A stretch of DNA of 64,000 nt, from assembly GCA_051362555.1 (NCBI GenBank), contig CM120640.1, positions 39,100,788-39,164,787 on the forward strand. Direction: 5' to 3'. Source of the stretch: Lingula anatina. Taxonomy: Eukaryota > Animalia > Brachiopoda. A program made the position numbers and the translations under genes. Positions 639 through 28,711 of this stretch are shown here, piece after piece (position 1 is the first letter of the stretch; the number at the start of each line of letters is the position of its first letter). Under the pieces are notes generated by a model. That model saw only the letters and a list, made by a program, of their open reading frames with translations, did no database searches and was not told where the DNA came from.

Positions 639-834
639 CTTGTGCCCTAGTAAGTACAGCTCCAGGATCGCATAGCCACGATTTCAGTTGCCTGCCACAG
701 TCCCTATAGTTAGTCCTGGGGTTTGGAACATTTTCTATTCTGTAAGACACGGCTGTAATTAAACCCACAAGAGACAATAAAACTAAGAGTTTTACTTCTA
801 GAGACCTGCTTCTCTCCATACTCGTAGACTCCAT
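639..834 (-). CDS. First coding exon of a secreted/membrane MOLO1 (TPM-domain)-like protein; gene continues off the left edge
   Basis: A hydrophobic signal-like stretch (KLLVLLSLVGLITAVS) is followed by VPNPRTNYRDCGRQLKSWLCDPGAVL, matching the PNP-x-CGR-x-S-x-CDP N-terminal motif I recall for MOLO-1/TPM proteins. Donor CAAG|gtgagc at 639/638; acceptor ttttatacag| at 961-962; possible upstream non-coding exon donor CCAG|gtaagc at 1178. The start could be ATG 834, 819 or a more upstream Met. Confidence 0.65.
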
Positions 835-3342: not shown

Positions 3343-4599
3343 TTATGCCACTCCCATCGCAATCCCACGGTTATTTCTACGAGCAATTCGGAAGGGAACT
3401 TTTCGCTTAGTCTCTACAATCCTGTCCAGCATTTGTCCAATCCTAGTTGCTGTAGCTGACCAGCTGTACTTTTGAATGGCAAACTTGCGGTTGTCTTCTC
3501 CTGTTTTTCGAACTCTATCTCTGTTGCAAGCAAGTTTTTCGAACGCATTGCGGATGGCCTCAGCGTCACCAGGGGGGACTTTGCAGCCGTGCACGCCATC
3601 TTGAACGATCTCGTCCAGCCCACCGACAGAGGTCACTATCATGCAGCAGCCAGCGGCCATTGCTTCAATTGCAACGATTCCAAAAGGTTCATACAGAGAT
3701 GGCATTATCAAAATATCTGATGCTGCCATATACGTTGAAAGTTCATCTGGAGTTTTTTGTCCTAAAAATTCGAACTGAGTGTTTTCTTTGACTAGATATT
3801 CATAATCGCTTCCTTTATAGTTGCCGACCAGTCTAAATCTATGAGGTACTTTGGTTTTCTTCATAGCCTCAATAGCATATGGAATGCCTTTTTGAGTCGC
3901 AAAACGTCCAGCAAACAACACATTAATGGTATCGTGCCTAAAGCCAAGTTGTTTTTTCGATTCCTTTAAGTCTAATGATGCAAAGCGGTCAGTGTTTATT
4001 CCAGCTTTAATCAGTATCGGGTTTGTCGCTTTGCACGATTCCACTTCAGACACTGTTTGGTGCACCATGCAATCTGCGTTTTTGTTAATGGCTTCCTCTA
4101 CCTTCAGTCGGGTTGGCCCGATATCTGGCATGGGCTCACGCTCATACTTCTGACTCCCCAGGGAGTGGTGGACGTGAAGCTGAGGCAAGCCGAGGCGCAG
4201 GCCAACGTAACCGCTCAGCCAATAGTTTGTGAAGGCGCAGTCGAATTTTGATGTGTCTATTTGTGAAATGAAGTCATCTAGGTACGGGAACAGGAAGTCC
4301 CGGTTGATGTGCTCCTGAGGCCCAGATACAATGTACTGGCACCGGAGAGTTGGCGATAGCGTGACCACACCCACTTCTTCTGGCGATTCGCTTCGTGTAA
4401 ACCAGGTGACATCGAACCCCAGCTTGGACAACTGCTTGCCCACCTCACGAACATAGACGTTTTGACCTCCCTTGCCGTCAGAGCCGAGTTCCGAATCTGG
4501 TACCAAGGGATTGCCGTGCACCGAGATCATTGCCACGCGCTTTGGGCCCGTGCAGATCTCTGGCGCTATGCTGCTCGTGGTTGCTTCGTAAGCTGGCAT
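3343..4599 (-). CDS. GT4 (GT-B fold) glycosyltransferase, cyanobacterial sucrose-phosphate-synthase / MshA-like; copy 1 (418 aa, intronless CDS)
   Basis: Motifs ISVHGNP..GGQNVYVREVG..FTR, TNYWLS, HSLG, GRF..KG, PSLYEPFGIVAIEAMA, VGGL and YSW. The ATG at 4599 has a GCCATG context and lies 7 nt after a polypyrimidine/AG acceptor (ttccttcag| at 4607-4608). Confidence 0.9.
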   Translation of the reverse strand: MPAYEATTSSIAPEICTGPKRVAMISVHGNPLVPDSELGSDGKGGQNVYVREVGKQLSKLGFDVTWFTRSESPEEVGVVTLSPTLRCQYIVSGPQEHINRDFLFPYLDDFISQIDTSKFDCAFTNYWLSGYVGLRLGLPQLHVHHSLGSQKYEREPMPDIGPTRLKVEEAINKNADCMVHQTVSEVESCKATNPILIKAGINTDRFASLDLKESKKQLGFRHDTINVLFAGRFATQKGIPYAIEAMKKTKVPHRFRLVGNYKGSDYEYLVKENTQFEFLGQKTPDELSTYMAASDILIMPSLYEPFGIVAIEAMAAGCCMIVTSVGGLDEIVQDGVHGCKVPPGDAEAIRNAFEKLACNRDRVRKTGEDNRKFAIQKYSWSATATRIGQMLDRIVETKRKVPFRIARRNNRGIAMGVA

Positions 4600-4891
4600 G
4601 GCAAATCTGAAGGAAAGACAGAGAGAAACATAATAATAATTTGACAAAGCTAAAATAAACCCACCAGATAAAGACGGGATAAATTTATTTAAATATCAGT
4701 TAATCCTTATACGCTTATATATTAATTAAATATTTATACTTAATCATAAACTGTTGCCGTTCCGTTTTTTTAAAAACACGTTCTTTGCAACTGATAAAGC
4801 ACATGTCAACTTTCGACCTAGATAATGCTCTTTCAAAACTGCAGAGCTTAAACAGAAGTATGTCACAGATAAATAATCATAACAAACAAAC

Positions 4892-5096
4892 CTTTGCTAT
4901 TTCCTGGTTCCTTCGATTGTTTCCTTTTTATTATCTGTGTATTCTTCGTTTCTTTCTTCCGTTAAAAAACCGCTAAGTCGGTTACCAGTTGAGCTGCGCC
5001 TCCGCTTAAATAGTCCCGTATGAGGGTAATAAGCCGGGTCATTTTTCACCATTCCGTTCACACTAGCAGCATGCAGCTCACGGTAGGAAAATCCCC
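4892..5096 (-). promoter_or_regulatory. Putative promoter and non-coding first exon of GT copy 1 (TATA-like box, kappaB site)
   Basis: On the minus strand: TATTTAA at 5006-5012, GGGGATTTTCC (contains the consensus kB decamer GGGATTTTCC) at 5086-5096, and a candidate donor AAAG|gtttgt at 4892/4891. Confidence 0.4.
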
Positions 5097-6808
5097 AGCG
5101 TTTATGTTAACCGACTGTGTAACTTGATAATTTCCTCATCCATACCTCTCTCACGTGCAAGAGCATCACGTGTTACGTATTCTCGCAAGGGGCGTGCTGC
5201 ATCGACCTTGAGCCGTTGGGTAGTTTTTTATTAGAGCGATCGTTTACTTCAAACATCTGCATGAGATTGCTTCCAGATTACGCTCGAAGATTGGCTGAAT
5301 TAAGCTTGTTAAATTTTCCCTATATGTAATATTTTTAGAGGTACCACTGTTGAGTTATGATGAGTATCAAGGCAATTGGAGTTAAGTCTAGGGCTTGTTT
5401 TAAGACTGAATAAAATCAAGGTTAATGGTCCTTTAAGCTTTTTAAGTACAACTTAGACGAGTGAACTTTATTACTTAGATCAACATTCGACTTATATTAA
5501 GAGTGTGAAATGGGAACAAGGTCCCTCATCAGGAAATGCCACTGAAACAGTAAAAAAGAAAAAAGGCATATGACGTTTTCTTAGACCTATATGATAAATA
5601 CCCTTCTGAAATTAAAAGTTGAGATGGGATGAGTGATCATATAATAAGGTTCTCATGCAGGCTTCTCACGCGTGTATATCATGCATCCACCACCTGCCAT
5701 TGTCGTGGAAAGGAAAGAGCGTTCAGTTACATGTCAGCATCACACACCTGCCCATTTCGCTTGTTTCTCGTAACGTCTTTTTTGACGCAGTTTGGGCAGC
5801 CTTGGATTATTTATATTTGAGGCAATAAATATCCGACATTATTTACTACAGTGAAATGGGTTGTACTACGTGTAGTGCCTCCTATTGCTGTAAACACGCT
5901 GGTTTGACTATTAGTTAAGACAAGTTTATACTTTGCAGCTGTGGATATTTCCTTTACTACTTCTCTGAAAGCGCGGCAGATCTGCCGCTCTGTTAAAGTG
6001 GAGGTTTTCTATTTTTATCCAGGGAAATATGCCCTTCTTGTATGATGCAACTGTTCAATGGGCCAATTTCATGCATCGAGTATTTTAGAAAATCACACGA
6101 TTTTTGTATCGGATAAATTGATCCTGAAACTTTTTTTTTTGGTTTTAAAAATTCGCTCCTGTCCACGCCGTCCAGTCCACTGAATGATCAACGGAAAGTT
6201 AATAAGACGCGAGTATTGGGACTCCTCCCCCCCCCCCCCCCCCAAAAAAAAAAAAAAATCGTCCTACGTAGTTAGATCCAACTCCGCGGGGACTGTTGCT
6301 GAATGCAGTCAGATTAACAGATAAAAAACCCTCCTCCTGGCGTTGAGTAGAAGACGAGTACGTTGGAATCAAGAGGAAGCGTGTTAAATAGGTTGGTGCC
6401 ATACTCGTGTAAAAGGTCGATGTCTTATAGTACCTGATAACCTTAGTGAAATAACTAGATGTGGTAATGTTACGATTGGGGTTTAGACGACAGTGTTCAC
6501 CGAGGCAATATTAAAATACATGAAATTGTACTATAGTCATCATTTAAACTATGTATGTAGTTGTAACACTACCCGCCTTCTTTATCACAAGATCTATTTT
6601 TCCCATAAATGTTTTTGTAGGCAGTAATAGATGAAATAAAAGATTAAGGTAAACATGCGTGCTCGTTTGTACTTTTGCATATACGGATGGCTTATCTTTG
6701 CCTTCCAATTGATAATTTTGTCATCTCTTTTTTATGTTTACCTCATCAAATACCTCTACCATCTATATTTAAACATTTCTAGTCTGATTCTCACAACGGA
6801 GAAGTAGT

Positions 6809-6850
6809 TTTATTTTTATTTTATTTTATTTTATTTTATTTTATTTATTT
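6809..6850. repeat. (TTTTA)n microsatellite
   Basis: Directly visible pentanucleotide run. Confidence 0.9.
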
Positions 6851-7238
6851 TTTTGGTTAAGTTGCGCTAGATAAACCATTTATATTTAATTAAAGTTATT
6901 TTGATAGAATCTCCAGGATCCCAGTTGAAAAACAACTCCTGCACGCAGCCGTCCAGTGATTGCCGTTGCTCACTGCGCCAAGGTATAGAGAAATTCAGAT
7001 CTTTTGTTTGATAAAAAAAATCATCATTATGACACTTGTATTTTTGTTAATGTAAGTGAGATTTTCGTGCTTAAACACTGGTTTTAGTGTTCGTATCGCT
7101 ATCACCAAAACAAACCGGGTGCTTGTTGTGCGTGTGTTTATTCCAGTGATTAGCTCAGTCATGCTATGACCTAAAGCAAGGAAAACGCGAATATAAATAT
7201 AAACTTCATCCTCGAAATTCAAAACCGTTCGAATCTTT

Positions 7239-7640
7239 GTCTTCAAATTTAAATAAGATATAACATGTTAGTTAAGTACAGGTCGATTTCGAAATACATC
7301 TTAATCGGACCATTTTTCCAAAACATGGGCTGTTTTTTGTTTGTATTTTTTAGCCTAAATGCAGTACAAATAACATATTAAGAAGGAAAACTGGTTAACG
7401 TATTGTCTTCAAACTTACAAAACTGATGAATAGTGGTAAAATACAGGTCGAGATATAAAATTAGCTTAATAGGACCATTTAAAAATGCTGTTTTTTTTCA
7501 GCATATGTACAATACAGATAACACCTTAAGTAGAAAATAAGTGGATCTTTTGACTTCAAACTTACATGACTGATGGATATTACTAAAATACAGGTAGAGT
7601 TAAAAAGCAATATTACTGACGATTCTCAAACTTACAAAAA
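7239..7640. repeat. Degenerate tandem repeat, ~150-165 bp unit, ~2.5-3 copies
   Basis: Recurring motifs acaggtcga..cttaat.ggaccattt (~7278, ~7443, partial ~7590) and cttcaaacttaca..actgatg (~7407, ~7554, ~7625). Confidence 0.6.
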
Positions 7641-8159
7641 AGATTCATAGTTGGAAAACCAGCCTGATTGGGCATCTTTTTTGAAAGTAATGCATTATTT
7701 TGTGAAATGATCATTTTTCATATATTGGCATTTTTATTGTGGGACTTAGCATTCCTACGGGCACGAAGTTGTATAGCTGATACATTTTCTGAATGTCCAT
7801 GTTACCTTTAGTAGGTAATTAAAATTTGGTAGTGATTATACAGTTAACCATTATGTAAAATTGCATTAAAATTGACAAAAACCCTATTTTGTGCACTGCC
7901 ACAATTTGCAGTATAAAGGAAAACTGTATTATATATTATGCTCAAACCTACGGAGTGTTTCTCAGGAATAAACTACAACTTGAGTTGGAAAACTTTGCCC
8001 GATTAGATTCCCTTTTTCGAAATAATGCAGTGTTTTTGTGTAATGCTCATTTTTCACATTTTGAGATTTCCCGGGTACTAATTTGAACTCTCATGCGCTC
8101 AAAGGCAGTTTAAGCTTATTGTTTTACTATAATAGATCACAGCGACGTTGAGTGTTATA

Positions 8160-9125
8160 AAAAGACAATCGGGCGTTCTCTAAAATCAGGCTACTAAATG
8201 TTACATCAAATTTGATAATGGCATGCCTCAAATGTTGATTTTTCTTTAAAAAAAGAAAGAGAAAAATACTCAGTCATTGGCATTTAGCTTTATTTGCATG
8301 TTTTATTTTTCATATCATGGGCTGCGTGCTATTTTGTCGCTAAAGCTTTGCCAAAGGAAGTATGACACAAATTTGTGCAAAATTGTTTGTAAATAAAAAC
8401 TTTTGCTGACTCATTGCATCATAATTTTTAGGATGATGAGTCGTATCGAATATTTGATACATACCTTTTATCCCTTAGGTCATAACATTTATAACAGGCA
8501 AAAATTTGTTACATTGTTAGTATAGTAGGGTTATATAATAAATGCGACCTTGTTTGGCCAAATATCGAACAACCAATATTCTTTGTTCCCTTCTTTCTTG
8601 TTGTGAATGGAATTATGAAAGTTTGTGGTGCACTAGGAAGGAGGAGACATAAAAACACGTGGCTTTTAAGTGACTGGCGTTTGGGTATTGTCCAGCAGCA
8701 TGCACCGTTCACGTGCACGTGTATTATAAATGACTCAATAATGAGTAGTCTGGTTAATATATAATAGGTAACTCTGTCGAAGACAATCGGGCGTCCTCCG
8801 TCAAAATCAGGATTCTTGGTGTTATTTTCAAATTCGATTAAGACATACCTTTATATATATTCACTTAATGTATCGTCTCGGAAAAAATAAGTTACAGAAA
8901 AAGATTCACTAACTGATATTTAGCAGAATTTGCATGTTTGTAATTAGATTCTATATTTTTTATATTATTTGCGGCACGCTATTTGTCTCTATAACTTTTC
9001 CATCGGAAGTATGAGAAAATTCGTAAGTAAAACACGTGCTTTTTAAGTGACTTGTGCCTGACCATCGTCCGGCAGCATGGACTGTTCACGTGTGCTATAA
9101 AACCTGAAATGACTCAATAATGATG
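8160..9125. repeat. Degenerate direct duplication (8160-8750 vs 8780-9125)
   Basis: aagacaatcgggcgt..aaaatcagg occurs at ~8162 and ~8780; aaacacgtg.ttttaagtgact..cagcatg..gttcacgtg..aaatgactcaataatga occurs at ~8663 and ~9030. Confidence 0.7.
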
Positions 9126-10211
9126 GCCCATAAATCTTAACTTTATTGTTGTAATTTGGACACGGTCAGCCGGTTTAACGACAGGTGAAATTTATCTTGG
9201 CACTGTCAGCGAAACATGATAAATCTGCCTATTAATCTAGCAGTATCATTGTTGCACGGGTGAGAAGTTAAGATATACAGTGGTGTGTGTTTTTCCTAGG
9301 GTTGAATGCCCTTTTTACTCAATGCGGCTTTATATGCAAAGAGCTAATGTGCACTAACTCCACGGGGAATCTTGCTTAATGCAATCAGATAAACAGATTT
9401 ACACGCCCCCCTTGTTTCCAACGAATCGTATAATCACCAGCTCTCTTTATTCTACTCAAGGCCATGAGTTTGTCTGATTTCATCCAGCGAGAGTCCCCTT
9501 GGAGCTATTGTGCATTAGCTAGGCCGAAAATTCACTCATAGTGAATGGTCCCATAGAGGGGTGTTACCAAATAAAATCCATTTTATCAACTCTATCCAGT
9601 TAAATACAGTGGGTCAACATGACGTTTTCAGAACCGTTTTCTAACTGATGAATTTATAAGAAACACGTTTTCCAAGAGTGTTTTTAGAAAAAATAAATTA
9701 AAAATATAAAGTCATCACAATTTCTTGTGTGCATCAATTTATTTATTTATTATTTTTTGTAACGTTATACAAAATCAGTAAATAGTATGTGAAGCTTTCA
9801 TAACAAATTTTGTCCAACCGTTTAATATTTCAGTGATGTATATATATAACTAGAATCTGTTTAATAATTGAATCTTTTGTTCTGTTGCCTCTTTTTGAAC
9901 AGCATTTTACTTATTTATTGTATATATACATGTATGTCAAACACTTGCATCCGAAAGGAGAGTAGAAATAATGGTGTATCCGACAATTATCGAGCACTGC
10001 TGCTCGAACAAGGAGGGTTGGATGTGTAGACCGCATGCATACATGCACGCCAGGAAAACTCTTTCAAATGTTATTGACTAAAATAACATTAGGCCTACCA
10101 TTGGGTAAAATATTTGAATTAATTGAAGAAAAAAAATACTGATTGTTAGTCTGAGTTTAAGCAGAACACCAAATCCAAATATACAGTGCAAATTATGGGT
10201 GCATACAGTCC

Positions 10212-10216
<5 letters not shown>

Positions 10217-10255
<39 letters not shown>
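10217..10255. repeat. (TA)n microsatellite in the 3' region of GT copy 2
   Basis: Directly visible. Confidence 0.9.
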
Positions 10256-10258
<3 letters not shown>

Positions 10259-10373
10259 CTTCACTCATTAAGTAATTCACAATTCAAGCGGCTCGTGTGA
10301 ATTATATCAGTGTGCAACGTCAGGACTATGTACAATTTTGGCAGAAAAATGGAATGTTCGTTTTGGTCGGAAT

Positions 10374-11695
10374 TTAACCAACGTACGATCTCTTGGACGC
10401 AAGCCCGACGTCGGTTAAGTCTGCTGAAGCACCCTTATTGTGTGCAGGTTGGACAGCTGGTGTGAAAATTCTGTTGGCTGGAACAGGGTTGCAATAGACA
10501 ATTCTTTCTAACTGCTGGCGTATTTTGATTGCTGTCCCCTTCCAACTGTAGGCTGACATGGCGTTGACGTGTGCGTTTTCAGAAAGCCGACGTCTGAGGT
10601 CGGGCGACGCTGCCAATCGTTCGAACGCCACGCGAATGGCGTTAGCATCTCCAGGGGGTATCTTGAGTCCTGTGACGCCCTCTTCCACGATTTCATCCAA
10701 ACCACCAGTAGCAGACACAATCAAAGAGCATTTGCTGGCCATTCCCTCGATAGCAACGATTCCAAAAGGCTCGTACAAGGAAGGCATGATTAAAATATCA
10801 GAGGCCACCATGTATAGCGCCAGCATTTCTGGAGGTTGTTGGCCAACAAAATCAAACTGTGGATTTTCAGCCACCAAATGTTCAAATTCACTCCCCTTAT
10901 AGTTACCAATCAGACGAAATTTGAAAGGGACATCTGTTGATTTCATTGCTTCAATAACGTACGGAACACCTTTCTGCGAGGCAAAACGTCCAGCAAACAA
11001 TACGTTGATGGTGCTCTCGTCAAAACCCAGTTCCTGTCGAGCAGCGGTTGGGTCGCACTGTTCATATCTATCCGTGTTGATACCAGCTTTAATTAAAACT
11101 GGATTTGTCGATTCGCACAGTTTGATCTCAGAATCTGTCTGATGTACCATACAGGCGACATACTTGTTGAGGAGTTTTTCTACGGTCAGGCGAGTTGGGC
11201 CGATTTCGGGCATTTCCAGTCGCTCATATTTCAATTGTCCAAGGGAGTGGTGCACGTGCAACTGGGGTCGTCCAAGACGCAGGCCAACGTAGCCACTTAA
11301 CCAGTAATTGGTGAATACGCAATCAAACTTGGAGGCATCGATCTGTGCGATGAAGCAGTCGAGATGGGTGAAGAGGAAGTCCCTGTTGATGTGTTCCTGA
11401 GGCCCAGCAACAATGTACTGGCATCTGAGGGTAGGTGATATGTCAATCACACCCACCTGGTCCGGAGCTTCGCTTCGGGTGAACCAAGTGATGTCGCAGT
11501 TGAGTTTGGCAAGCTCTTTCCCCACTTCTCTCACGTAGACATTTTGTCCACCTTTGCCATCAGAACCCAGTTCTGAATTCGGAACCAAAGGATCCCCGTG
11601 CACAGATATCATGGCAACCTTCAGTGGGATCCCCCCAGCGTTCTCCATATGTGGAGGGGGTGTTTCCACCGTGAACCCCGGCGTTCGGACACCAT
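10374..11695 (-). CDS. GT4 glycosyltransferase, SPS/MshA-like; copy 2, main coding exon (443 aa when spliced to micro-exon 16666-16675)
   Basis: Same motifs as copy 1 (ISVHGDP, GGQNVYVREVG, TNYWLS, HSLG, GRFASQKG, YEPFGIVAIE). Acceptor ttttcactccag| at 11696-11697; the reading frame is open up to the acceptor in phase 1. An alternative internal ATG is at 11648. Confidence 0.9.
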
Positions 11696-14600
11696 CTGGA
11701 GTGAAAATGTGATAATGAAATACATGTACAATTAAAATGAAAACAGTTAAAAACTGAAATTTATATTAACTTCACTATATTTTGTTTCGTTACCCCCCCC
11801 CCTTCCCCCATTTTGTAATTTTAATTTAAATTTACGTTCTATTGATATGTAAATATCTGTTGTATAAGTCATTTTGCAATAAACGGCAATATTCATCTTT
11901 CTGGTGTTCGTTCTCCTCTCCTTTATAATACCTTACAAGCATTTTTTAACATATTATAATGAGATAATGGAAATCATACATAAAGTTGGTATATTTTGAT
12001 ACCGTCTGAGATGATTTGATAAAGCTAAAATAAGCGTGTTGCATGCAATAGAAAAAGCACTGTGAATGAATTTAGCTGTCTTTTAAAACGAATGGACTAA
12101 TGGATGTTTTAAAATTTAACCTTATTTAAAGAATGGAAATAGCAACACATATTGTCTTATTAAAAACTGTCTATTACTCGCGAAATCGCAAGCATCTTGG
12201 TCTGCTTGTTTGTTACTTGCAAATTAATTTTCGTCAATGCATTGGCCTGCTCGTTTGTTTGTTTGTGGTCTGCTCGTTTGTTTGTTTTGTGGTTTGTTGT
12301 TGTGGATATGCAATCGAGGGAGTTTGAATTACTCCTAAATACCTCTATGTTAACATACAATCTACATGTGCTCCCAGTTCTTTTTAAAGGCTGGCAATAT
12401 GATATTTGCTAGATTTATTGTATTATAGTTCGCAAGTATTTCCTCTGTAAGCAATTTTATTTTAATTTCCTCCTTATTGCTTTTTTCGTGTGATAAAAGT
12501 GTGGGTGAGTTTTCAAATCATAGAATTGTGCTGGAACAACCATTCATTCCTCTACCCAAGTTGAAGCTTCATGGAACAGAGCCTAAAATAAGAAACTTTC
12601 TTGACTTTGAAATGTAAAAGGCCAGCTGCATTAAGGCCCGGAAGATGCGCGCGTTTTTTTTTTTTCTCTTTTTTATGGAATGCTCAAGTTTGGGTATCAC
12701 GGAAAATTCCTGACCTTGGCATTCTCAACGTCTGAAGTTAAGGGCTTTTGCCAGATAACTAGCAGTTGCTAGTACAACATTCCCAGACGCTGAGAGTAGC
12801 TGGACTTGGCCAGTGTAGCTTAATTTTTGCCGGGTAACCGAGAGAAACGCATGGTTATTTACATTAAAAAGGACGCGAATAGTTTATTACAGATGGGGCT
12901 ACGTGCTTTTAAATACGCGGATTTCTTTATGCGCAAAGGTAGGACTTAACGCCGTTTGGGGCACATGAATATTTAAGCTATACCCGACCTTGAAACCCGA
13001 TCTCAAAAGTTGTTTTTCTGTTCAAAAACTCGTGGTTAAACAATCTTCCGTTGGTGGTCCGTATGGTGATTTATTGAGTTTTAATTCAGATTACGGCAAT
13101 GCGTATAGTTAAAAATCTGGTCAGTGACTGTGATTAAGTTGGAACGCCAAGCAGATGGCCGGATAAACCCTCTAACATATCATCACATGACCGAAGGGTA
13201 TCCAAACACCACCTTGACTTGACCAAGCGTGATAATATCACCTGCGTTGGATATACACACGCGCAGGTAGTCCCAGATATAGCCAGAAAGTTCAAGGGAG
13301 TTCTATAAAGGATCCAAGGCACCTTGAAATTAACTGGGGCTGAATTCGAGTAAAAAGGAAAATTACTGAACTGGTTTGGCACTGGTTTGGTGTCGGAAAT
13401 TTCCATGCTGTGACTAGGTGATTTAAGGTTAAAAAAACACACTCACACACAAAAATTACGTTAAACTAAACTTCAGAAGGGGATGGGGGTTCAAGCTTCT
13501 TTGCAAAGCAAATGCAAATTTCGGTTGTATGAATGACATATTATTACACGTAAGTAGCATACTTTAATGTCATTAAAGAGCGTAGAAAATGAAAATAAAG
13601 AGTCCTAGCGATGTCGTGTAACAGAAGCATAAAGCACTTTAGGGAGGGGATATCGTTTTTTGGTTTACTGAGTATACCTTCACCCTGGCAGCTTATGTAA
13701 CTCCGTGAGTCTACCCTTTTGTCGGTCTGGACTGAATAAATTAACTTGTCTCAAATCGAGGAGATGTGCCGTTCTGAACATTTGATAGAATAATCGAAAA
13801 GACAATTCGAAGGTTCTCAAAAGGGAATCAATTTCATATTTCTCTCAATATCTCACACTGGTATAACCGTAAATATTTACAAATTTAAATATTAGATCTG
13901 ATGAAGTGTTTGAAGATAGTGAGTTATAACTGCATCTATTTAGTTGCAAATATGACGCAGTTAGACTGGAACGCATTTCAGAATATTTTAGATCTACGAC
14001 TAAACGAACCTGAAAAACTAACTGTTATTGTTTTAATTCGATTTCGTTCATGCTCAATTACAAGCTCAAACAGGAGATACCGTAAACTGTATCTTGGAGA
14101 AGATCTAATCAAATTTTTTTTGCAATAGCTGATTCAACGAACCACATGCCCCCCCTCTTTAGTATCCCTTCTCTCTCTCTCTCTCTAAAAAAATGACACC
14201 TATCAAGCGAAACGAAACAAAATCATATAATTTTATCAACCCTGTGCCTTATATGTTACAATCAAACTGTTCTTCCCAACCATTTTATATTAGCCGGGTG
14301 AAACGAGGTATAGAAAATAAATCTTTGCTCTACACCAACCCCTCAACAAAATCCTGGATCAGTCAGAGGTGTGATGTCAAACACATATTGATATCAATTT
14401 TGCTAATAAAGCAAAATCCTCGACATTTTGTCTTCTTCAGATGCTATTTAAAAAAATAAAATGATTTGTATGATAGCTATGATAGAATGGTTTATATGAT
14501 AGAAACTGGAGATAACAGGTTACCACAACATTCCCAGAAAAAAAAAACTACGAATAATCTATCTATCTATCTATCAGTGTTATCTTAGTTATGTTCACTC

Positions 14601-14839
14601 TTGAACTCCAATCTAATTCACCGAAGAGAAGTTAAAGAAGCTAAGAAACAAATCCTTGTCAAACCAATACATTTCAATCATAGATGTTCACTCGTTGAAA
14701 GTTGGCAGTTGATAGTGGCGATCAAGAATGGTGAAATATTTGGAGCTCATTTAAAGTCAATGGGTCTTTTGATCTCTCGTTCAACACGGTCACCACACCT
14801 GAGAAAACCCGGTTCAAGCCAGCCCCAGCGCTATCTAAA

Positions 14840-14896
14840 CCCCCCCCCCCTCCCCCCCCCCCCAACCCTCCCCCCCCCCCTCCCCCCCCCCCCCCC
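14840..14896. repeat. Interrupted poly-C tracts (G-quadruplex-capable on the - strand)
   Basis: Several long C runs separated by t or aa. Confidence 0.8.
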
Positions 14897-16380
14897 TCAA
14901 CAGGAAACCATAGCCATGTTTATATTCCACGACCGGTTCTTCGAACAAAAGGATTACAGTGCACGCGTACGTGTATTTCGCTCACGCTCTCGCTTGTAAC
15001 TTCATACGCTTCGGTGCGTTGATCTTATTGTTCCAGCCGTGGGATAAGCCAGTTACAGCTACTTGTCGTCCGCTACATCCGACAAACAAGAGCAAATTAT
15101 ATCATGACTGCTGCAGTGGACGACTCCTGTTGTAATACTAAGAGCGTTAAAACTAAAACTATAATCCGGTGAATTAGTGTTTTTACTTTTGTTTGCCAAA
15201 AAGACAAATAGTGACACATACACAGAAATTGATTTTAATCAGTAGTCAGACCAGATAGATGTGCGCGGTTTCCTGTGAAGTAGTGTTTCTCTATAGTGCT
15301 CAGAGAAACCCCTGGGAGACCGCCAAGAGCCCGTTTCTGTCTACGTGCTACCACGTGTAGCCCGTGTTTGTGAAATAAATTGAGCGAAGTTTTACAAATG
15401 ACTGTTGTGTTTCCTTCCACTAAAATCGCTAACATTTTCACAGCAGTAGTTAGACAATTGTGCTTGATATGGAAATTTATTTATAAGGAAACCAAGTGTT
15501 TTAACATTACGAACTGATGATGATAAGTGAATGGCAAGGCTTATTGTACATGTTGTGGAAATATGATGCGGTCAAGCGTGCTTTGGTAACGGTAAATTGC
15601 CCAAGGGCCCATATCAGCTATTTTTATAATGCATTTAGGCTACCTTTTGTCTCTAAAATATGCAAATCGATTTTACGCTTTATCGTTTTAAGTCTCCTTT
15701 TTTAAAGCTGACACAAATATCCATAGTGAAACTCAACAAAACAGGTGCATGGGGTCATTTTATTGTTATATAATTCTTGCAACACTCCGAGCCCTAGATC
15801 CGGGCATCTTTGAAGTCAGCGAGGATCTTCAAGTGCAAATTCGATTTTTAAGGATTGGTAGGTGATTTTTTTATGTTTTGCAATCCGTTGAATCCGGGAT
15901 GGTATTTATCTAGCAAGCTTGCCAAAGTGACAACACTATTTAAGACTTCTGACTATATCTTGCGGCAAAAGTGGCATACGTTCGCAGTGTTTAGTTACAA
16001 ATAAACATGATAAAAAGCACTCGTCCAAACCGGACTTGTTATTTCTTTTCTTTATTGAAATTGTTTGACCTTCTTCGCAGGTTTAAACGAAAATAGATGC
16101 ATACATATCAAACTCATTCTATTTCAAGAAATATGAAATAATATTTCACAATATCATTGGAAAATATTTGCGCACATATGACCGTGATTATATCTCAGGG
16201 GCTAAGATTTCTAAAGCCATCCCTTTTAAGTGCATCACCAAGAAAGGAAAAACTGGAGACTAATTATAATTGTCTTTAGTGTTTAGCTTAGTATGCTTAA
16301 CCCGACACTGATTAAGTGTGTTTGGAAAGATGGATGTTTGGGTTATAATTGGAAATAAGACTCATCCTACCTTGTCAACT

Positions 16381-16500
16381 ATTATTCATTCTTTTGACAC
16401 TTTCTAAATACCTAATATAAGTTATTCATTGTTTTAACACTTTCTAAATACCTAATATAACTTATTCATTGTTTTGACACTTTCTAAATACCTAATATAG
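16381..16500. repeat. 40-bp tandem repeat x3
   Basis: Unit (n)ttattcatt(c/g)tttt(g/a)acactttctaaatacctaatata(a/g), three head-to-tail copies with no spacers. Confidence 0.92.
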
Positions 16501-16665
16501 GTGCGCATGTTAATTACCATCGCAAAATATATGACATTTTATTAAGTATGTAAACAGTGTCTAAAAATGTCTTGCAAAATTTACAGTATTTCACAATGTT
16601 TTCTGCGATTAAATTTCTTCAACTAATAACACATCTTGCTGACATAAAAAGTTTAAACGTCTTAC

Positions 16666-16675
16666 CTTGTAACAT
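16666..16675 (-). CDS. Candidate first coding exon (ATG TTA CAA G) of GT copy 2
   Basis: aagccATGTTACAAG|gtaaga combines a Kozak-like ATG with a strong donor. Its phase 1 matches the acceptor at 11695, giving MLQDGVRTPGF... The intron spans 11696-16665. Confidence 0.7.
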
Positions 16676-16789
16676 GGCTTGATCTTGTGTGCAGAACTAT
16701 TCAGCAATAGTTTTGGTTGAATGTTGGGTTTGTCTCCCTCTGCGTGTGTCAGCCAACTGGTCTCTCCTGCGCCCTACTGGACGATGGCA

Positions 16790-16828
16790 GTGTTTTTGAC
16801 GATTATGCGGTTGACTGCCTTATAAATG
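16790..16828 (-). promoter_or_regulatory. Putative TATA promoter of GT copy 2
   Basis: Minus-strand ccatTTATAAgg at ~16819-16826, about 150 nt upstream of the ATG at 16675. Confidence 0.5.
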
Positions 16829-18061
16829 GAACAGTCCTTGGGTACGGCCGCCGTTTCTGTTTACAGGGGTGACATTGTGTGACGATTGCCAATGAAATTG
16901 AATGCCAAGTGCTGTGCACGCATCTTCGTTTTCGCGGTTAATCAAACAGTTCGCATGTCACTGCACAAATCCTCTTACACGAGAAACCGTGGTGAACCGC
17001 TCTGTTATCACTTATTGAAATTTTGGTGACTTGTTTTCATGAAAAATCGTGTAATACGCACTTCACGAGTCAGCAAGGTGTATGTGAGATGAACGAGTGC
17101 GAAACACTAATGGATTTCACGTACTGAGTAAATAATATATATATATATATATATATAAGCATCTTAATAGTTCGTATTATGTTGATATAATTCAAGTCTA
17201 CATTTAAGATATCTTAACTATTATAGCAACGTGCAAAGTGACGGGTGCTACACAATCTTTAGTAGGCCTATTATATAAAAACGTACGTTTGATAGATCGT
17301 ATGTTTGATAGACGTGGGTACATGTGCACTGTAGCTGGTAATTATTTGCCAATGATGCTGTGCTGCAGTACTTATATTCACTTGGCCAGGTGGAATTTTG
17401 GACAATTTTGGGAAGGAGGGGACTTGAAGGCGAGAGGTCTCTGTTAAATGTCCCTCCACAACAATATGTGAGCGTAAGCCCAAATTTGGATCTTAACATA
17501 TTTAACATATTTGGGTGAAGGGTCGGATGAACGGCATGCGAGACAAATGAATTTAATGCAAATCTATGTTCACCTGCTGTATGCTATCTTACACAGTAAA
17601 AGAAACTGCGTTTTTTTAAATCATTTTGTTCAAGTAAGGCTAATAATCGCTACATGTATCAACGGCAAACATGCTGACTTTATTAGGCTGATCTTCTTGA
17701 TATGGGACGAAAGTACTATAATGAAACGAGATTTAATCTGTGGACGGTAAAAATTAAGGCAAAAAAGTTACACAACAACGAACACGTGGTACTGTTATAA
17801 AATTTTAAAGTGCTGGACAATCCATCATCCCGATCTATACACCGTGATCTCCCTGAAATCGATACGTGTCCCCCACTGAATTGACGCGCAAATTAATGGT
17901 AGCAGTTGACCCACTCCATAGAAATATTTCAATCTGATTTTTTTTTTATAAAAAAAGAAGCACTCAAGCTCAAAATTAATTTAAAGTCCAGAGAGACAAC
18001 AAAGAAGTAACCGCCGACTTCAAAACTAGATGGTTTTCAAGGCCGCGACTGCTCCAGTCAT

Positions 18062-18086
18062 ACTGGCGTATCCAGGATTCGGCTTT

Positions 18087-18122
<36 letters not shown>

Positions 18123-18130: not shown

Positions 18131-19330
18131 TAAAATTTTAAGCATAAGACGAGAAAAATAAATTTGCGCGGCTGAGCTATTTTGAGTAACACGTCAAAAC
18201 GGAATAAAGCACGCTGGCTTTGCAAGGTGTCGCTTGTGAAGACCGGTCATTTCAGCCCCCAGGCGCATACTGCTACCGTGACAAAGCAGTAGCGGCAGTG
18301 ACTTGATATCTCTCTGTAACTCCTTAAATTTTTCATTTTATGACAGATATTATATTTACTAACTACAGTGTTAATTAAACGCCGTATTTATGGCACGTAT
18401 CCAAAAGTGACCCCAGGTACGCCTAAACCGGTCACAGATGGCTGGAGTTTCTTTTGTTCTCGTCCCAAAGCAGAAGCCAAATCTCGATAAATGCAAAAGA
18501 ACAAACATATCGATAACAAATAAGTTCCATGTAGTGCAATGAAATGCAGTAAACATTTTGTGGGTGGACACGGTTGTCCACAGAAAATACGCGTTCGTTT
18601 AACAAAAAATGTACCAAGTCACACTGAAGATCATGGTTCCAAATTCTGAAAGGTGTGCTTATGTACATGTGAATTTATTTTTTGTGAATGGGTCCGTGCA
18701 CGCGTGTTGATCAATTTCAGCCCTTAGTTACGCCTCAGTTATGCCAGAAGTCACGTCTACGTCGCCTTTTTTTCTGGCGACAACTAGACCTGCCCGTTAC
18801 AATTTATCTTAGCAAGAAAAAAGTGTCTTGAATCAAGAGGACCTATCCCGTAACCTAGATCCGTATTTGACAGACAATTCTTCGAAAGAGTCCTGGGTCC
18901 GGGTTTAGTTTTAATAAATTCTTGCCACGTGTTGTTTTTTTATCCAAACCTAAAACTATTATAGCATTGGTTTTGAGAAGCCAGTTTCTTGAAATAGGCC
19001 TAAGGACAAAAGTCGGCCTAATTCAGATTCATCTCAGTCACCTGGAAGTAGGAAATGGCAGAAAACGGTTTCAGGTGCTATTAGATTCTATATGAGACGC
19101 ATACCCTTTGTTGCATATTGTGTTTTGCATTGTATTGTGTATTGACTCCTAGCTCCTTATAATGGGTTTGAACATCTGAAAATTTGATCGTCACAGGCCT
19201 GTAATTTTTGTGGGCTACCTTCAAAATGTAAAATTGTGATTGCTACACGACACATCCACCACAATCTCTTATGTTCGAAGCAATGTTTCTGAAAATAGAG
19301 ATGTCTAGCTCTGCATGTTGTTTGGCGAGG

Positions 19331-22300
19331 ATGGCGCAGAAGGAGTCTGCAGGTGTCATAAAGCGCCAAATGCAGTACAAACCAATGACTCCACCATGGA
19401 AAGAAACATACAGAAAGGTAGTGATATTTTCCCTTGGGTCTACAAAAGGCTTAAACTTAGTCATTATTTAACACTCTGGACGGTTAGTTGGTCCCGGTGG
19501 GTCCTGTTGCCCATTTGATTTGATTTTGAGATCATTGAGATTGAGTTTCACAAAATAATGTCTCATTCATTTACATATATCCTTTGATTTGGCGTGGTTT
19601 TCTATACTGTGGCATGATTGCCAGATTTTGCTGTAGTTTTACTCGCGAGAAGGAAATGTACACTCAACAACCACAGCCAGAAAGGGTCATTGCTTGATTC
19701 TACCGGTAGGAGATGGAGGGAGGGGGGACTGAGAGAGAATTTCAATTCTGACGTGATCTGTGTATATAATTAAATACAGGTCACAACACAAGTACAAAAT
19801 ATCGTCTGTTTGTAAAATGAAGACAATTTCAAAGGTGCATCAATTCACAAATTTCAAAGCCATTATATTAAACTGCCCACCCCTCACCCACCAAGATAGA
19901 TTCAACACCACAGTTTATATAAGGGAAATGCATTCACATCACTTCCAGTTTAGATTAGCTGTCTGCAACCAGACAGTGAGATGTGCTGTACATGCAATGT
20001 CGCAGAGCAGTTTAAAAAAATTGAGTGTTTTTGTCCTTTTGAATTTCATTAAGATTATTTAGGTAACAGATGCATGGACAGGCTTAAGATGAAGGTCTTT
20101 TCAGCAGATATGATAGGTCAATGCCTTCTTGTCATAATTGAATGAGTTGTCTTTATTAGCTATGCAATGAAATATTGGCAGAATTCCAACTCGGTGGTAT
20201 TAAGTGTTTTACAGACAAGATGTTTATCTGTTACATTAGTAGAACATTATTTATTGGATCTCTTTTTCTGTTGGATAAATCCATATCTTGTCATTTTAGA
20301 GATGTATGAGCAGACTGAAGAAAAATCGAGAGGCCTTTCTGAACAGATTCCGAACTTCTGAAAGTAACAACAACAACAAACCATCACTTGTTAGGAATCT
20401 CATGGTTCAAGAGTGGAAAACTCTGCAGGCAGAAGAAGGTGGACTTCCACAGTTATCTGATAATTTTGATGTAAGTTTTTTAATTAAAATAAGTTGTTAA
20501 GGATAGAAAGTATTGGTCATAAAGCATCACGAGTCTCTTTGTTTTACCAGACCTGGAACCATGCATAACTAAACTCTTGTTTCATTCATGTTTCTTCTGC
20601 AAGAAAATAGTTTGAAATATTAAGTGTTTTTACTGCCTATGCTGATATTTGATTTCAGTCACATTCATTTTTCAGAAAGCAGGATCTTTATTGTTTTATA
20701 TATAGCATTTTAACAAATTTATAGAAATAAAGCAACTTAATATTAATTCCTTTCTGAATCAGCTCCAATCTGCACCAGATGACACAGATGTTGAGCAGGT
20801 TTTGTCAATTTTGGAAGAAATAAAGTCAGAACTGCTTTTAGAAGGTATGTTAAAACAAAGGGTTATATTTTGCTTTGTTCTTCATATCAGTGTTTTGTTA
20901 TAGCCTGCAATTGCATGGAGTAGTTTGAACCATTAGCAGAATTAACAGTGTAATATTTCATTACTTTCAAATTCCAGCTCACAAAAAAATTCAGTATCCT
21001 GTATATTTTTTCATGCTCAAGATATGAAGTCAAAATAAGAAGAGGAGATGGAATGTCCTTTAATTTGTATTTTTTTCAATTAATTTTTTGGATTTTAGAA
21101 CAACGCATATTGGAGGAGTATGAAAAAAGTTTGGCTTTTGACGAGGCTGGGCTTTGTGCTGCAATAGACCAATTAAAAACAGATGAAGTCATTTGTCCTA
21201 TATGTAAAAAGTGAGTTCAATTGAGTCGGGTGTGCTTAAATTGGCTTCTGAATTGTCTTCTTGTATCGGATGGTGCAGTTGAAACAATGTCGTTCAGTAA
21301 AGCATAAGCAAATTTGTCAAACAATGGTGGTTTTTTGTTGATCCAGAGGACCAGTGTTGTAAAATGAAAGTTCAACAAAAAAATGTGCATGGTACATATT
21401 GATCCATAACTTTGTGTCCATAATTGAAAATGTTATTTTTAGAGGGAAAACAACTGTTCATTTTGGCCACAAAATTGATTTTCCTGGGGTAAAGGACAAT
21501 TTTCCTATACTAACCAATGGATAATGAATCCATTCCCACATTCAAAGTTAGACCCTGTTTTTTTTTTTCTAAAAAAAATGGTTTTCTGTAATGTTCTCTT
21601 AAGAGATTATTATAGAGTGTAGCCATATATGGAGGTCTTGTGATATGATGGCAAGCACAAATTTCAGAATAATTGTGTTTATCACCAATTTTGGTGTTAA
21701 AATGGAATTTATTATATTTCTATGAGCTGTTTACAATGCATTTATTGTAAAATATCGATAACTTATGAACAGTTGTTATCTATTTAAGTGGACAGAATGT
21801 ACAAAATGTTACCGTTGTTATGATGTAGTTTCATTTCACAAATATGGACCTTGTAAAATATACAGAAAAAGGTTGTAAAATAATGAATGCAGCTGTTTAT
21901 TTTTTATAATTTTATGCAATGTTTTACATTTTAGAAATCCACTTATGCAGAATAAACAAATTATATTTTGTTGCTGTGGGATGAGGATTGACACAGAGGT
22001 AATGCTTTTATGCTCTTGTTTTATATTGAAAGAAAAATTTTTATATTTGGAACAGTGTTCGCCTCTTAGGAAAATAAGTTGCTGGACAGAAAGTCCAGCC
22101 ATCTTGAAAAATAGCTGGACTGAATGTCTGCCGGGTGGGAAAACTTCGCAGCCCGTTCTGGAAGTTGTCAGCCCGGGCAGACGGTCCAGCCTTAATTGCT
22201 AACACTGATTATGAAGGTATATTTACATATCTGAGTCTGTTAAAATGTACGACGCTCGTATGCAACTTTATTTTGTGTGGATGATGGAGTTATTAAGAAA

Positions 22301-22830
22301 TGCAAACTTGATCATGTCATGAGTTTCTGGAACAGATTAAAAATAATATCTTAAGTGTTTACCTCAAACCTTAGATGCTTTAAACTCCGTTTTTTATAAA
22401 TGAAACCTCCCATTTCAGCTGGATGGGTTGAATATAGCCAATATCAAAAGTCAACTTGAAGAAGGCATATCATTACACAATACTCAGTGCGTGAAAGAAG
22501 CCAAGTTTTCAGTGATGAAACAAGCAGGAGTAGAAAATCTTCTTATGACATGTGAGGTAAATATAATAGATTTACGATACAAACATTTTTTTTGTTAATT
22601 TTACATACAAAAAGTGGAAGAAAATGTTGTAACTTATAAGAGCAGGTCATATTAATTATTCTGGGTAATTAAGCCAACAACAGTGGTTGGAATCACACCA
22701 ATCTATTGCAAAGTAGTGTTGTTTGAATAAATAGGTATTTCTTTTTGTGACACAAATTGCATTCACATGCAACTATTGGTTTTAATTTTTTTTTTTTCAG
22801 ACCTGTGACTTTATGTTTATTGTGATATGA
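19331..22830 (+). CDS. RPAIN: RPA-interacting protein (RIP/RPAIN), 7 exons, 227 aa
   Basis: Exons 19331-19417, 20300-20470, 20763-20844, 21099-21210, 21935-21998, 22419-22556 and 22801-22830. All are GT-AG and phase-consistent (684 nt). N-terminal YK..TPPWKETYRKRC..RL...R..FLNRFR, an acidic middle, and a C-terminal Zn finger (VICPICKK..CCCGMRI..H...C..LLMTCETCDFMFIVI*). Confidence 0.93.
21438..21787. mobile_element. Degenerate copy of the TTAA-type MITE seen at 41925-42281 (in RPAIN intron 4)
   Basis: Colinear similarity with 41925-42281 (ttcattttggcca, aatccatt..cacattcaaagt, ctcttaagagattat, tagccat..atggaggtc, attatatttctatga). Its own inverted ends are caactgttcat / atgaacagttg. Confidence 0.75.
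22053..22207. mobile_element. Possible short hAT-like MITE in RPAIN intron 5
   Basis: Termini cagtgtt...aacactg with internal inverted gctggac/gtccagc motifs; no clear TSD. Confidence 0.4.
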
Positions 22831-23642: not shown

Positions 23643-23648
23643 AATAAA
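23643..23648 (+). other. Candidate polyadenylation signal of RPAIN
   Basis: AATAAA about 810 nt after the stop, followed by T-rich sequence. Confidence 0.4.
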
Positions 23649-24121: not shown

Positions 24122-25253
24122 CTACCAGAAAATCTTAAAGAAGTCGACCACACGTGTCTTCCAATCCTTTATCTTCCTTTTGCATTCCGTCGGCTCCGAA
24201 TCGGTAACAAATTTGATTCGCCCTTCCAAGCCGTGAATTAGGGGAGAATACTTCCTGATGTAGGCCATCATGATATCTGCATCAAGGACGTCTGTAAGAG
24301 AGTCATTTCAGTATAAAATGATATAGGGAAAATATTGTATGGATGCGTAAATAGATCAATTAATTGAAAAAAGTTAATAAGGCACTAAAAGGAATGGCTT
24401 TAGTACGTTTGATAAAATTGTATTTAATCAATCAAATTATATATATATAAAAAAAAAATCGCGTGATTGCATTTTTCACATTAAAGTCATTATTTGGTTT
24501 ATTGTAAAACATACAGTAGCCTACCAATTCCATATCGAAAGAGAATGTTGTTCTTCAAAACTTCATAACCGTCACCACCTCCCAGTAGGAATGTTGAAGT
24601 TGCAACATTGTATAATTGGGTCTCTACAAGGGGTTTGAACTCGGGGACGACACAGTCTGCGCATCTTACATCAAGACTGACAACTCGGCTACCCACCGGC
24701 TTAGAAACGTCATACACCACCCGTAAACCTTGGCGCAACGACAAAATATTTATCTATGATGATGCGTTCAGACAAAAGCCACTAGTTAAAACGATACGGT
24801 ACTAATATACGACCAAATACTTCTTTAAGTGGTTATCATAATGAAACATTTCATTTTTTTTCTTTCTAGGTGATAAAAGATGTTAGGTTTGGATCTTTAT
24901 CACAAAAATACAGATATTATATTCAAAATGATAACTTACATTTACAATTCATATGAAAGTAATGTAGCTCCATTAATTTATAATACCGGGGTACAACATA
25001 AATTATATTCATTTCTTACCCGAGATCTGCAAGAAACGGCCTCGTCCCGACTCCATGTTGAACACGGAATGTTCCATGATGGCCCACAGCGCACTGCCGT
25101 TTATCTGGACTATATCTACGCCGTTACCAAAGGGGAATATACTGAGGACGTCTGATACAAGTATGTCACCTGTAATGAGAAAAAAAAATAATTGCAACAA
25201 TCGGTCCAATTATATTTTTTATTTTTGTTGGATAGTCAAAGAGAGAGAGAAAG

Positions 25254-25310
<57 letters not shown>

Positions 25311-28300: not shown

Positions 28301-28711
28301 AAGTTTAACAACGATTCTTATTTAAAAGACACACGTGGAAGAGACCTACCCACTGCAATACATTTAAGAGCTTTTTTTTTTACTTACCATAGCATCATAG
28401 CCCAGTCTGTTCATGAAATGTGTCGCTGCCAAGCCATGGTAGATAGAAAACCACAGGGTCCCTTGCCACTGGTCCCCGGCGTCCAGCAGTATGACGTTCC
28501 GCTCAGAGTTGCGAATTTCATTTATTTTTGTAGTTCTGCGGGCGACTCCTCCGAAACATTGACCCACAGCTGCCTCGTCCTCGGAGCAGCGGCCTCCGTA
28601 CTTATCGAATTGCTCGATATGCGCGTGAACATCATTTGTGTGTAAGATAGTCAAGTCAAATCCCTGGCTTAGTGCTAAACACAGGATGTTGAAGACAACT
28701 AACGCCCTCAT
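24122..28711 (-). CDS. NT5E: Ecto-5'-nucleotidase / apyrase family (CD73-like), 9 exons, 564 aa, signal peptide
   Basis: Exons (minus strand) 28711-28388, 27639-27426, 26947-26762, 26445-26248, 25889-25764, 25443-25321, 25169-25020, 24728-24525 and 24291-24122; GT-AG, 1695 nt in frame. Metallophosphoesterase motifs HTNDVHA, LLDAGD, GNHEFD, LGHAG and GGHSH; substrate-domain motifs NGGGIRS, FPFGN and GGDGY. Orthology versus paralogy to NT5E cannot be resolved by eye. Confidence 0.92.
25240..25314. repeat. Compound (GT)n(GA)n(G)n microsatellite in NT5E intron 6
   Basis: Directly visible. Confidence 0.9.

Follow-up and report, generated by a model that had tools for sequence, protein, structure and literature searches.

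Two spliced, expressed Lingula anatina genes in an animal-only branch of bacterial single-domain sucrose-phosphate synthases

Introduction

The ability to make sucrose is generally ascribed to plants, cyanobacteria and a small number of other bacteria. The chromosomal segment of the brachiopod Lingula anatina analyzed here (the window, 64 kb) carries two tandem genes for glycosyltransferases of family 4 (GT4) that resemble bacterial single-domain sucrose-phosphate synthases (SPS), which raises the question of how such genes came to reside in an animal genome and which reaction their products catalyze. No description of these animal genes was found in the literature searched. The answer that we favor, tentatively and at slightly less than an even chance, is that these spliced and expressed genes belong to an animal-only branch of the bacterial enzymes, likely founded by one ancient gain from a bacterium, and that their predicted cytosolic products transfer glucose from UDP-glucose to fructose-6-phosphate or a close sugar-phosphate.

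Structure and expression of the two genes

Both genes are encoded on the reverse strand. The intronless coding sequence of gene A (3343..4599), delineated from the open reading frame, Pfam matches and reads in three of four RNA runs, specifies a single-domain SPS-type GT4 protein of 418 aa. A 285-nt GT..AG intron in the 5′-UTR (4607..4891), bridged at the joint 4606-4892 by 32 reads in two of four runs, separates it from a non-coding first exon (4892..4980, upper end approximate) that is defined by read depth and by this joint. In gene B, the second exon (10374..11695; Pfam matches and read depth) contains codons 4-443, the stop codon and the entire GT4 domain, and is preceded by a phase-1 GT..AG intron of 4970 nt (11696..16665), the joint of which (11695-16666) is covered by 338 reads in six of eight runs. 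The first exon (16666..16795, upper end approximate), mapped by reads many of which end at 16782, comprises the 5′-UTR and 10 coding nucleotides (16666-16675), with the start codon at 16675. The spliced product of 443 aa exactly matches the L. anatina RefSeq protein LOC106179861. Judging by sequence, a putative TATA-like element (5006..5012) and a putative TATA box (16818..16826), both on the reverse strand, lie upstream of genes A and B, respectively; a scan for bacterial promoters around the genes, which is not relevant to genes of this kind, yielded matches at chance level. Host repeats lie between the two genes.

The RNA evidence derives from raw-read poly(A)/oligo-dT runs labeled L. anatina from independent studies, including one population that diverges by several percent and in which the introns are still bridged. 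The depth over the second exon of gene B is about 90x in the stranded run X6 and about 90x per direction in run X9, and the expression of both genes varies between tissues (RNA reads, some of them stranded). Genes A and B are confirmed as genuine spliced, expressed genes of L. anatina, and the expression on which the earlier note had made its proposal depend is seen in spliced reads for both.

The two proteins share 69% identity and the catalytic regions of both genes lack introns, as had been described for the tandem pair before its leader introns were seen in reads. Synonymous sites are saturated between the paralogues (pS 0.79; dN 0.24), so the duplication is old. Among the read differences listed for gene A, 22 are synonymous and seven non-synonymous, and pN/pS calculated from these 29 listed differences is about 0.09; both genes show signs of purifying selection. 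The duplication proposed in the earlier note is supported.

Domain architecture, active site and predicted reaction

Both proteins contain Pfam GT4 domains (E 1e-30 to 1e-33) and combine the features of retaining GT-B enzymes of this family, namely two Rossmann domains, matches to PF13439/PF13579 and PF00534 above the cut-off and the E-x7-E motif. The best solved relative is the Thermosynechococcus enzyme TeSPS/Tll1590 (6KIH; E 7e-57, 34% identity, TM 0.81), for which residue roles are as given in PMC7264703. In the alignments from which the residue counts were taken, seven of the nine ligand-binding residues of this SPS are kept, A48 being replaced by lysine and R253 by glutamine. The catalytic His158 and Glu331, as well as Glu339, Arg249 and P332, are retained in both window proteins, and at the fructose-6-phosphate site the equivalents of Q51, R105 and R178 are present. 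The HSLG, GRF..KG and EPFG..E motifs are intact in both copies, in agreement with the initial claim.

Given this active site, the enzymes are predicted to perform a retaining, front-face (SNi-like) transfer of the kind described for TeSPS. The donor side would involve His145 (H158), Glu304 (E331), Glu312 (E339) and Arg232 (R249), and the acceptor side Gln46 (Q51), Arg100 (R105) and an arginine in the region of Arg165 (R178); Lys43, a residue specific to the clade, may replace the lost R253 near the phosphates. The product would be sucrose-6-phosphate or a related disaccharide phosphate, which a host phosphatase could convert into a non-reducing sugar that might act in certain tissues as an osmolyte or as protection against stress. 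A cytosolic location is consistent with the lack of a hydrophobic leader in both proteins (best 11-residue Kyte-Doolittle means 0.64 and -0.12, from a simple hydropathy window rather than a signal-peptide predictor), in line with the earlier statement that neither copy has a signal peptide.

The strongest alternative, which we consider quite possible albeit not probable, retains the same origin and posits a changed function, with another sugar (for example, mannose from GDP-mannose) or another phosphorylated or small-molecule acceptor, and with lumenal versions in ctenophores. Mannosylfructose-phosphate synthase uses GDP-mannose as the mannose donor. A change of function is suggested by substitutions at ligand sites across the whole animal clade (A48>K, R253>Q and HTYH>HxHH, that is, Y>H beside the catalytic histidine), by loop deletions, by the absence of 13 residues from the donor domain, and by more distant homologues that serve heptose/carbamoyltransferase operons; moreover, no sucrose-phosphatase-like gene (PF05116) was found within the 64-kb window. 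A hydrophobic leader and 4-9 N-glycosylation sequons are present in each of the 11 ctenophore-type members tested, and some ctenophore-type members additionally lack R105 or Q51; these members appear to have gained signal-like leaders, which suggests that at least some of the clade works in a lumen and on an altered acceptor. However, the Lingula proteins keep all the other active-site equivalents listed above, the R253A mutant of TeSPS retains some activity according to PMC7264703, and the clade that encloses the animal proteins consists of SPS by biochemistry and gene neighborhood.

Distribution in animals

The genes are not a Lingula-only gain: the search recovered about 23 close relatives at 45-82% identity, which group into a single clade (100/99) and have indels in common that are absent from all 12 non-clade rows listed in the alignment, and the clade is common to a brachiopod, echinoderms and ctenophores. 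Only five animal genera are named among the matches, namely Lingula, Amphiura (brittle star), Acanthaster (sea star), Mnemiopsis and Bolinopsis (comb jellies). Members of the clade score at least 567 bits and the next matches at most 314 bits; when 1.84 billion representatives were searched with HMMER without an index, no full-length sequence fell in between. The clade support, the common indels and this gap in scores speak for one origin. As Amphiura and ctenophores glow, a role in storing coelenterazine was weighed, and was dropped since Lingula and Acanthaster are not known to glow.

A single old gain requires very many losses. More than one independent transfer, either between animals or from a bacterial, viral or protist lineage not yet sampled, would account for this very patchy distribution and for the intronless catalytic exons of Lingula; we rate such a history as possible but rather unlikely. 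The donor could be represented by P0291, a 187-aa fragment that is sister to the animal sequences. The root within the clade shifts between trees, and Lingula, Acanthaster and ctenophores lack a segment of 4 residues that bacteria share with the Amphiura group, a distribution in conflict with simple descent. Furthermore, animals seem to have acquired SPS-type genes on more than one occasion: the hagfish-labeled SPS-type protein P0209 falls outside the clade in the tree and lacks the clade indels, and on these two grounds is apparently a further, separate case, although its joining the animal clade is not rejected by the AU test (p=0.33).

Conversely, species-like groupings within the clade are not rejected (p=0.17 for the monophyly of Lingula; p=0.23 for Acanthaster with the Amphiura group), and divergences of 45-69% identity fit old descent. 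No named non-animal member of the clade was found in the collection that included EukProt, metagenomes and NCBI genomes, and none in two viral-contig scans and a phage set. The viral contigs yielded no relative with the alignment query and one marginal 27-residue match with the P0291 query, the phages three distant records, and the ESM Atlas bacterial GT4 clusters only. Scanning contigs from genomes and metagenomes for the pattern (8 and 9 of 64 parts), which is uninformative on absence, gave distant GT4s and one cyanobacterial SPS among the matches listed.

Placement among bacterial enzymes

The animal clade is nested among bacterial SPS-type enzymes, within an enclosing clade (91/97) of cyanobacterial and Bacillota members; in all five Bacillota loci tested, an S6PP phosphatase gene adjoins the SPS-type gene, and two of these loci also lie beside osmoprotectant transport or mechanosensitive-channel genes. 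Proteobacteria were represented in the comparison only by three plasmid loci and representative sequences. This placement, along with TeSPS as the best structural match, upholds the SPS-type bacterial ancestry proposed originally; the phylogeny recovers a clade confined to animals, yet one that is small, patchy and inside the bacterial enzymes. Introns, expression and selection, combined with nesting within bacterial diversity, are the marks of a horizontally acquired gene, for which we prefer one ancient acquisition from a bacterium.

The cyanobacterial label given to the genes holds for the best non-animal matches, single-domain SPS of cyanobacteria at 33-38% identity, and not for the mixture-model tree, in which the animal clade, whose stem is long (1.1 + 0.6 changes per site), lies outside the cyanobacterial group, weakly beside one sequence (81/90). 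FastTree groups the clade with cyanobacteria, and the union of animals and cyanobacteria is not rejected (AU p=0.34); the data thus neither establish a donor among the cyanobacteria nor speak decisively against one. A recent transfer from a cyanobacterium to Lingula, in this animal only, is nevertheless highly improbable: both its recency and its restriction to Lingula are contradicted by echinoderm and ctenophore relatives that are far closer (45-69% identity) than any cyanobacterium and by the saturated synonymous sites between the paralogues.

Comparably improbable is the reading of these proteins as MshA-type D-inositol-3-phosphate GlcNAc transferases, an option that had been entertained for Lingula and that follows the database names of the Amphiura and Bolinopsis proteins. 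The MshA model TIGR03449 is the best NCBIfam match and MshA ranks second among the structural matches (TM 0.79), but the scores of 168 and 161 bits fall far below the cut-off of 462.5, and the AU test rejects a tree that unites the animal proteins with actinobacterial MshA (p=0.018). The motif pattern GGQ/R/TNYW/HSLG/GRF/EPFG is SPS-like, with GGQ, R, HSLG and EPFG in place of the GGM, K, HTLA and ESFG of MshA. TIGR02472, a model of the SPS glycosyltransferase domain that derives from the larger SPS type, is likewise matched below its curated cut-off (80 and 75 bits vs 576). The label "D-inositol 3-phosphate glycosyltransferase-like" that databases attach to these animal proteins is probably incorrect.

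Chromosomal context

As previously noted, the genes are flanked by metazoan spliced genes. An exon of a MOLO1-like gene (640..735, reverse strand; PF17175, E 2.3e-6) lies on one side, and on the other are RPAIN (19301..22830, forward strand), with seven exons, six GT-AG read joints, an open spliced frame and matches to PF14766/PF14768 (E 1e-6 for PF14768), and a multi-exon 5′-nucleotidase (NT5E)-like gene (24877..28711, reverse strand, lower end approximate), assigned from open reading frame pieces, weak single-exon Pfam matches (E 0.004-0.007) and few spliced reads. A third Lingula paralogue resides on a 1.67-Mb scaffold, and the Amphiura and Mnemiopsis copies are on scaffolds of 67 Mb and 12.6 Mb, respectively. 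Contamination or a chimeric assembly with bacterial DNA, which the bacterial-type, intronless catalytic exons might evoke, is a negligible prospect, given that poly(A)/oligo-dT reads from independent studies bridge the spliceosomal introns, that the genes have host repeats between them and that orthologues are located on chromosome-scale scaffolds in other animals.

Implications

With an SPS-type family expressed and under selection in a brachiopod, and present in echinoderms and ctenophores, the synthesis of sucrose or a sucrose-like osmolyte by animals becomes a directly testable question; sucrose or a similar sugar may be made by some animals. A single gain would predate the ctenophore-bilaterian split and rank among the earliest acquisitions of a bacterial gene by animals; if the gain was not single, the pattern points to animal-to-animal transfer or to an unsampled donor lineage. 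A broader scenario is speculative and, in our estimate, unlikely as a whole: a brachiopod, some echinoderms and comb jellies would share one ancient SPS and make sucrose as a tissue osmolyte or protectant, the comb jelly enzyme would have moved to the secretory pathway, and further SPS-type genes, such as that for the hagfish-labeled protein, would have entered animals separately.

Comparison with known systems

The closest counterparts are TeSPS of Thermosynechococcus and the Anabaena SPS-A/SPS-B type (GT4, EC 2.4.1.14), with which the Lingula proteins share a single GT-B domain of about 420 aa and the GGQ-x2-Y and E-x7-E motifs. In contrast to these, the Lingula genes are animal and spliced, with putative TATA elements; L335>I occurs in addition to the A48 and R253 replacements, as do four or five clade-specific indels; the window holds no sucrose-phosphatase partner; and the ctenophore members bear secretory-type leaders. 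The enzymes of Bacillota SPS-SPP operons (for example, the Syntrophothermus lipocalidus cluster) belong to the same 91/97 clade and have a similar domain, but their genes adjoin the S6PP phosphatase gene and lack the animal indels. MshA (PDB 3C4Q/3C48) has the same fold and a phosphate-binding acceptor site, but is 27% identical and differs in acceptor- and donor-site motifs. In evolutionary terms, the nearest parallel is msp130, a gene of old bacterial origin that marine invertebrates, brachiopods and echinoderms among them, have retained patchily and duplicated; it encodes an unrelated protein and is reported to be bilaterian-only (PMC11878542), whereas the SPS-type clade includes ctenophores.

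Gene structures, neighbors and relatives

Two paralogous genes for GT4 enzymes of the single-domain sucrose-phosphate synthase (SPS) type, genes A and B, are encoded on the minus strand and flanked by metazoan genes (MOLO1-like, RPAIN, with six GT-AG joints, and NT5E-like). Gene A is an intronless open reading frame of 418 aa (3343-4599) with a separate non-coding first exon. Gene B, as the RNA read joints define it, has its start codon at 16675 in the first exon and continues in a second exon (10374-11695); once spliced, it encodes a product identical in every residue to the Lingula anatina RefSeq protein LOC106179861. Pfam GT4 domains score above the cut-off in both products. The two GT4 genes among metazoan neighbors described in the earlier note are borne out. 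The window also contains short host repeats (6295-6325, 8369-8459, 9356-9395, 21443-21483 and 22053-22207), which gather reads from elsewhere in the transcriptome, and low-complexity exon-like ORFs of host genes (32382-32855 and 53094-53582, plus strand; 36642-37163, minus strand).

A single-sequence search yielded 1354 proteins; among the 120 listed, 23 show 45-82% identity, followed by a drop to 33-38% for matches that are mostly cyanobacterial. A profile search, in which the best 7999 candidates were scored, displays a gap between this clade (at least 567 bits) and the next matches (at most 314 bits), and added no full-length member. By name, the clade includes three Lingula paralogues, two proteins of Amphiura filiformis, and those of Acanthaster planci and Mnemiopsis leidyi, with Bolinopsis microptera present as a cluster member. 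HMMER, run without an index on 1.84 billion representatives, recovered one full-length clade representative and the fragments P0291 and P0330, followed by cyanobacteria, and three further clade-like pieces were among 29 matches shorter than 203 aa. None of the single-sequence, profile, HMMER and fragment searches placed a named non-animal eukaryote in the clade. Given these echinoderm and ctenophore relatives, the gain is not peculiar to Lingula, as had been supposed, and the branch is older and wider. The bilaterian-type fragment P0357 ends, and the Bolinopsis model P0141 starts matching, at the same point just past the GPQ motif; judging from the protein ends alone, this may be a shared intron position.

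A full-text literature search, with most subscription papers outside its reach, turned up no account of animal genes of the SPS type. Looking up terms gave nothing on such genes in the main text and one supplement of the Mnemiopsis HGT paper (PMC6005172), nor in the main texts of the Lingula genome paper (PMC4595640) and of a metazoan HGT compendium (PMC13342648), the gene tables of which might list them. This branch of single-domain SPS enzymes in animals is apparently undescribed.

Predicted activity

The closest solved relative by sequence and fold is TeSPS (Tll1590 of Thermosynechococcus, 6KIH; E 7e-57, TM 0.81, model pLDDT 84), which is reported to make sucrose-6-phosphate (PMC7264703). 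Nine ligand contacts, made by polar groups or the backbone, are named for TeSPS (A48, Q51, R105, H158, R178, R249, R253, E331 and E339). Both Lingula proteins retain seven of them, and most clade members have K in place of A48 and Q in place of R253. In TeSPS, R253A reportedly retains some activity, and H158A and E331A abolish it (PMC7264703). The SPS motifs that PMC9971976 describes are present, in the single-domain form. In all five Bacillota loci tested from the clade enclosing the animal sequences, a sucrose-phosphatase (S6PP) adjoins the gene; none of 12 cyanobacterial loci has one within the approximately 1.5 kb scanned on each side (the scan took in 40 of 77 ORFs, the others being GT4 genes, overlapping frames and neighbors of other cyanobacterial loci). 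SPS function thus brackets the animal branch (TeSPS, S6PP-linked Bacillota), and its ancestor was therefore an SPS.

The Lingula enzymes would transfer glucose from UDP-glucose to fructose-6-phosphate, or a near relative, in the cytosol, and host dephosphorylation would then yield an osmoprotective disaccharide. Lingula inhabits intertidal sediment of variable salinity. No S6PP-like gene lies within the 64-kb window. We give this predicted pathway a little under an even chance; the main rival, an altered substrate in the animal branch, is a serious if less probable alternative.

Phylogeny and donor

Trees were built with FastTree (241 rows) and an IQ-TREE mixture model (51 rows picked from those 241, leaving out loci from two genomes flagged as unpublished). 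Both methods recover the animal sequences as a single clade (100/99), with clade-wide indels that are not in the 12 non-clade rows displayed. Its sister, on a long stem (100/99), is P0291, a 187-aa fragment from an 813-base contig that has the deletions common to the animal sequences; knowing where it comes from could point to the donor, or to a clade member outside the animals. The ctenophore-type sequences are sister to the bilaterian-type ones in one tree and nested in another, the internal root differing, and AU tests give p=0.17 for Lingula monophyly and p=0.23 for an Acanthaster-Amphiura group. A single old gain followed by many losses fits the data; repeated transfer into animals is a less likely but plausible alternative. 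P0209, an SPS-type protein of 410 aa under the label Myxine glutinosa (hagfish), has 48-49% identity to cyanobacterial SPS and lacks the Lingula-clade indels (grouping with the animal clade not rejected by the AU test, p=0.33); it may reflect an independent transfer to a vertebrate, or else contamination.

The animal clade falls, with cyanobacterial and Bacillota enzymes, in a group (91/97) separate from actinobacterial MshA (D-inositol-3-phosphate glycosyltransferase), Chloroflexota and betaproteobacterial homologues, Proteobacteria being few among the tree rows. Grouping with MshA, an affinity raised in the earlier note, is rejected (AU test for animal clade plus MshA, p=0.018). Of the proposed cyanobacterial origin, bacterial SPS-type ancestry stands but a cyanobacterial source is not demonstrable: the mixture tree sets the animal clade apart from the cyanobacterial group (88/86) and weakly next to another sequence (81/90), and uniting it with cyanobacteria is not rejected by the AU test (p=0.34). 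The donor is best described as an SPS-bearing bacterium, and need not have been a cyanobacterium.

Integration, expression and selection

RNA reads from eight runs under the same species label (three studies; 6-30% of each run used) were mapped, four runs over 2500-17500 and four over 10300-30200. The 285-nt intron of gene A is spanned by 32 reads in two of four runs, with read depth over the gene in three of four, and the 4970-nt intron of gene B by 338 reads in six of eight. The RNA level of gene B is high in four of the eight runs, low in three and absent in one, and therefore its expression depends on tissue or condition; in the stranded run X6, its correct-strand depth is ~90x, about tenfold that of RPAIN. 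At 4179, 51 partly aligned reads of run X7 continue, as read by eye, into letters encoding the third Lingula paralogue, LOC106178102, which is therefore also expressed. The animals behind runs X7 and X8 differ from the window by a few percent, and loose read ends on both sides of 9920-9923 in these runs point to an insertion in the gene B 3' UTR in that population.

Coding differences in gene A between the X7/X8 animals and the window, among the best-supported 40 of 302 rows, comprise 22 synonymous and 7 others (n=29; pN/pS ~0.09). The two paralogues have reached saturation at synonymous sites (pS 0.79), with dN of 0.24 over 376 codons, and the duplication is therefore old and under purifying selection. 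Contamination is very unlikely as the source of these genes. With introns bridged by RNA reads, host integration and expression of both hold, and genes A and B are real and domesticated.

Comparison with ctenophore and bacterial homologues

The Lingula proteins have neither hydrophobic leaders nor sequons, in agreement with the absence of signal peptides from both copies in the earlier note; leaders were scored as the best 11-residue Kyte-Doolittle mean, which is not a signal-peptide predictor. Each of the 11 ctenophore-type proteins tested carries a hydrophobic leader together with 4-9 sequons, which suggests, at the sequence level, that these members moved into the secretory pathway; one bilaterian-type protein, P0203, also has a leader by this score (2.06). 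The ctenophore-type group (P0011, P0014-P0025) is multi-copy, with signal-like leaders and many N-glycosylation sequons.

Among bacteria, Bacillota loci (L084-L086, L088, L089) combine single-domain SPS and S6PP in operons, some of which adjoin genes for MscS or for a glycine-betaine-type ABC transporter. The homologues of Burkholderiaceae and Streptomyces (L140, L141, L143) are more distant; they belong to heptose-related and carbamoyltransferase operons and perform a different job with the same fold.
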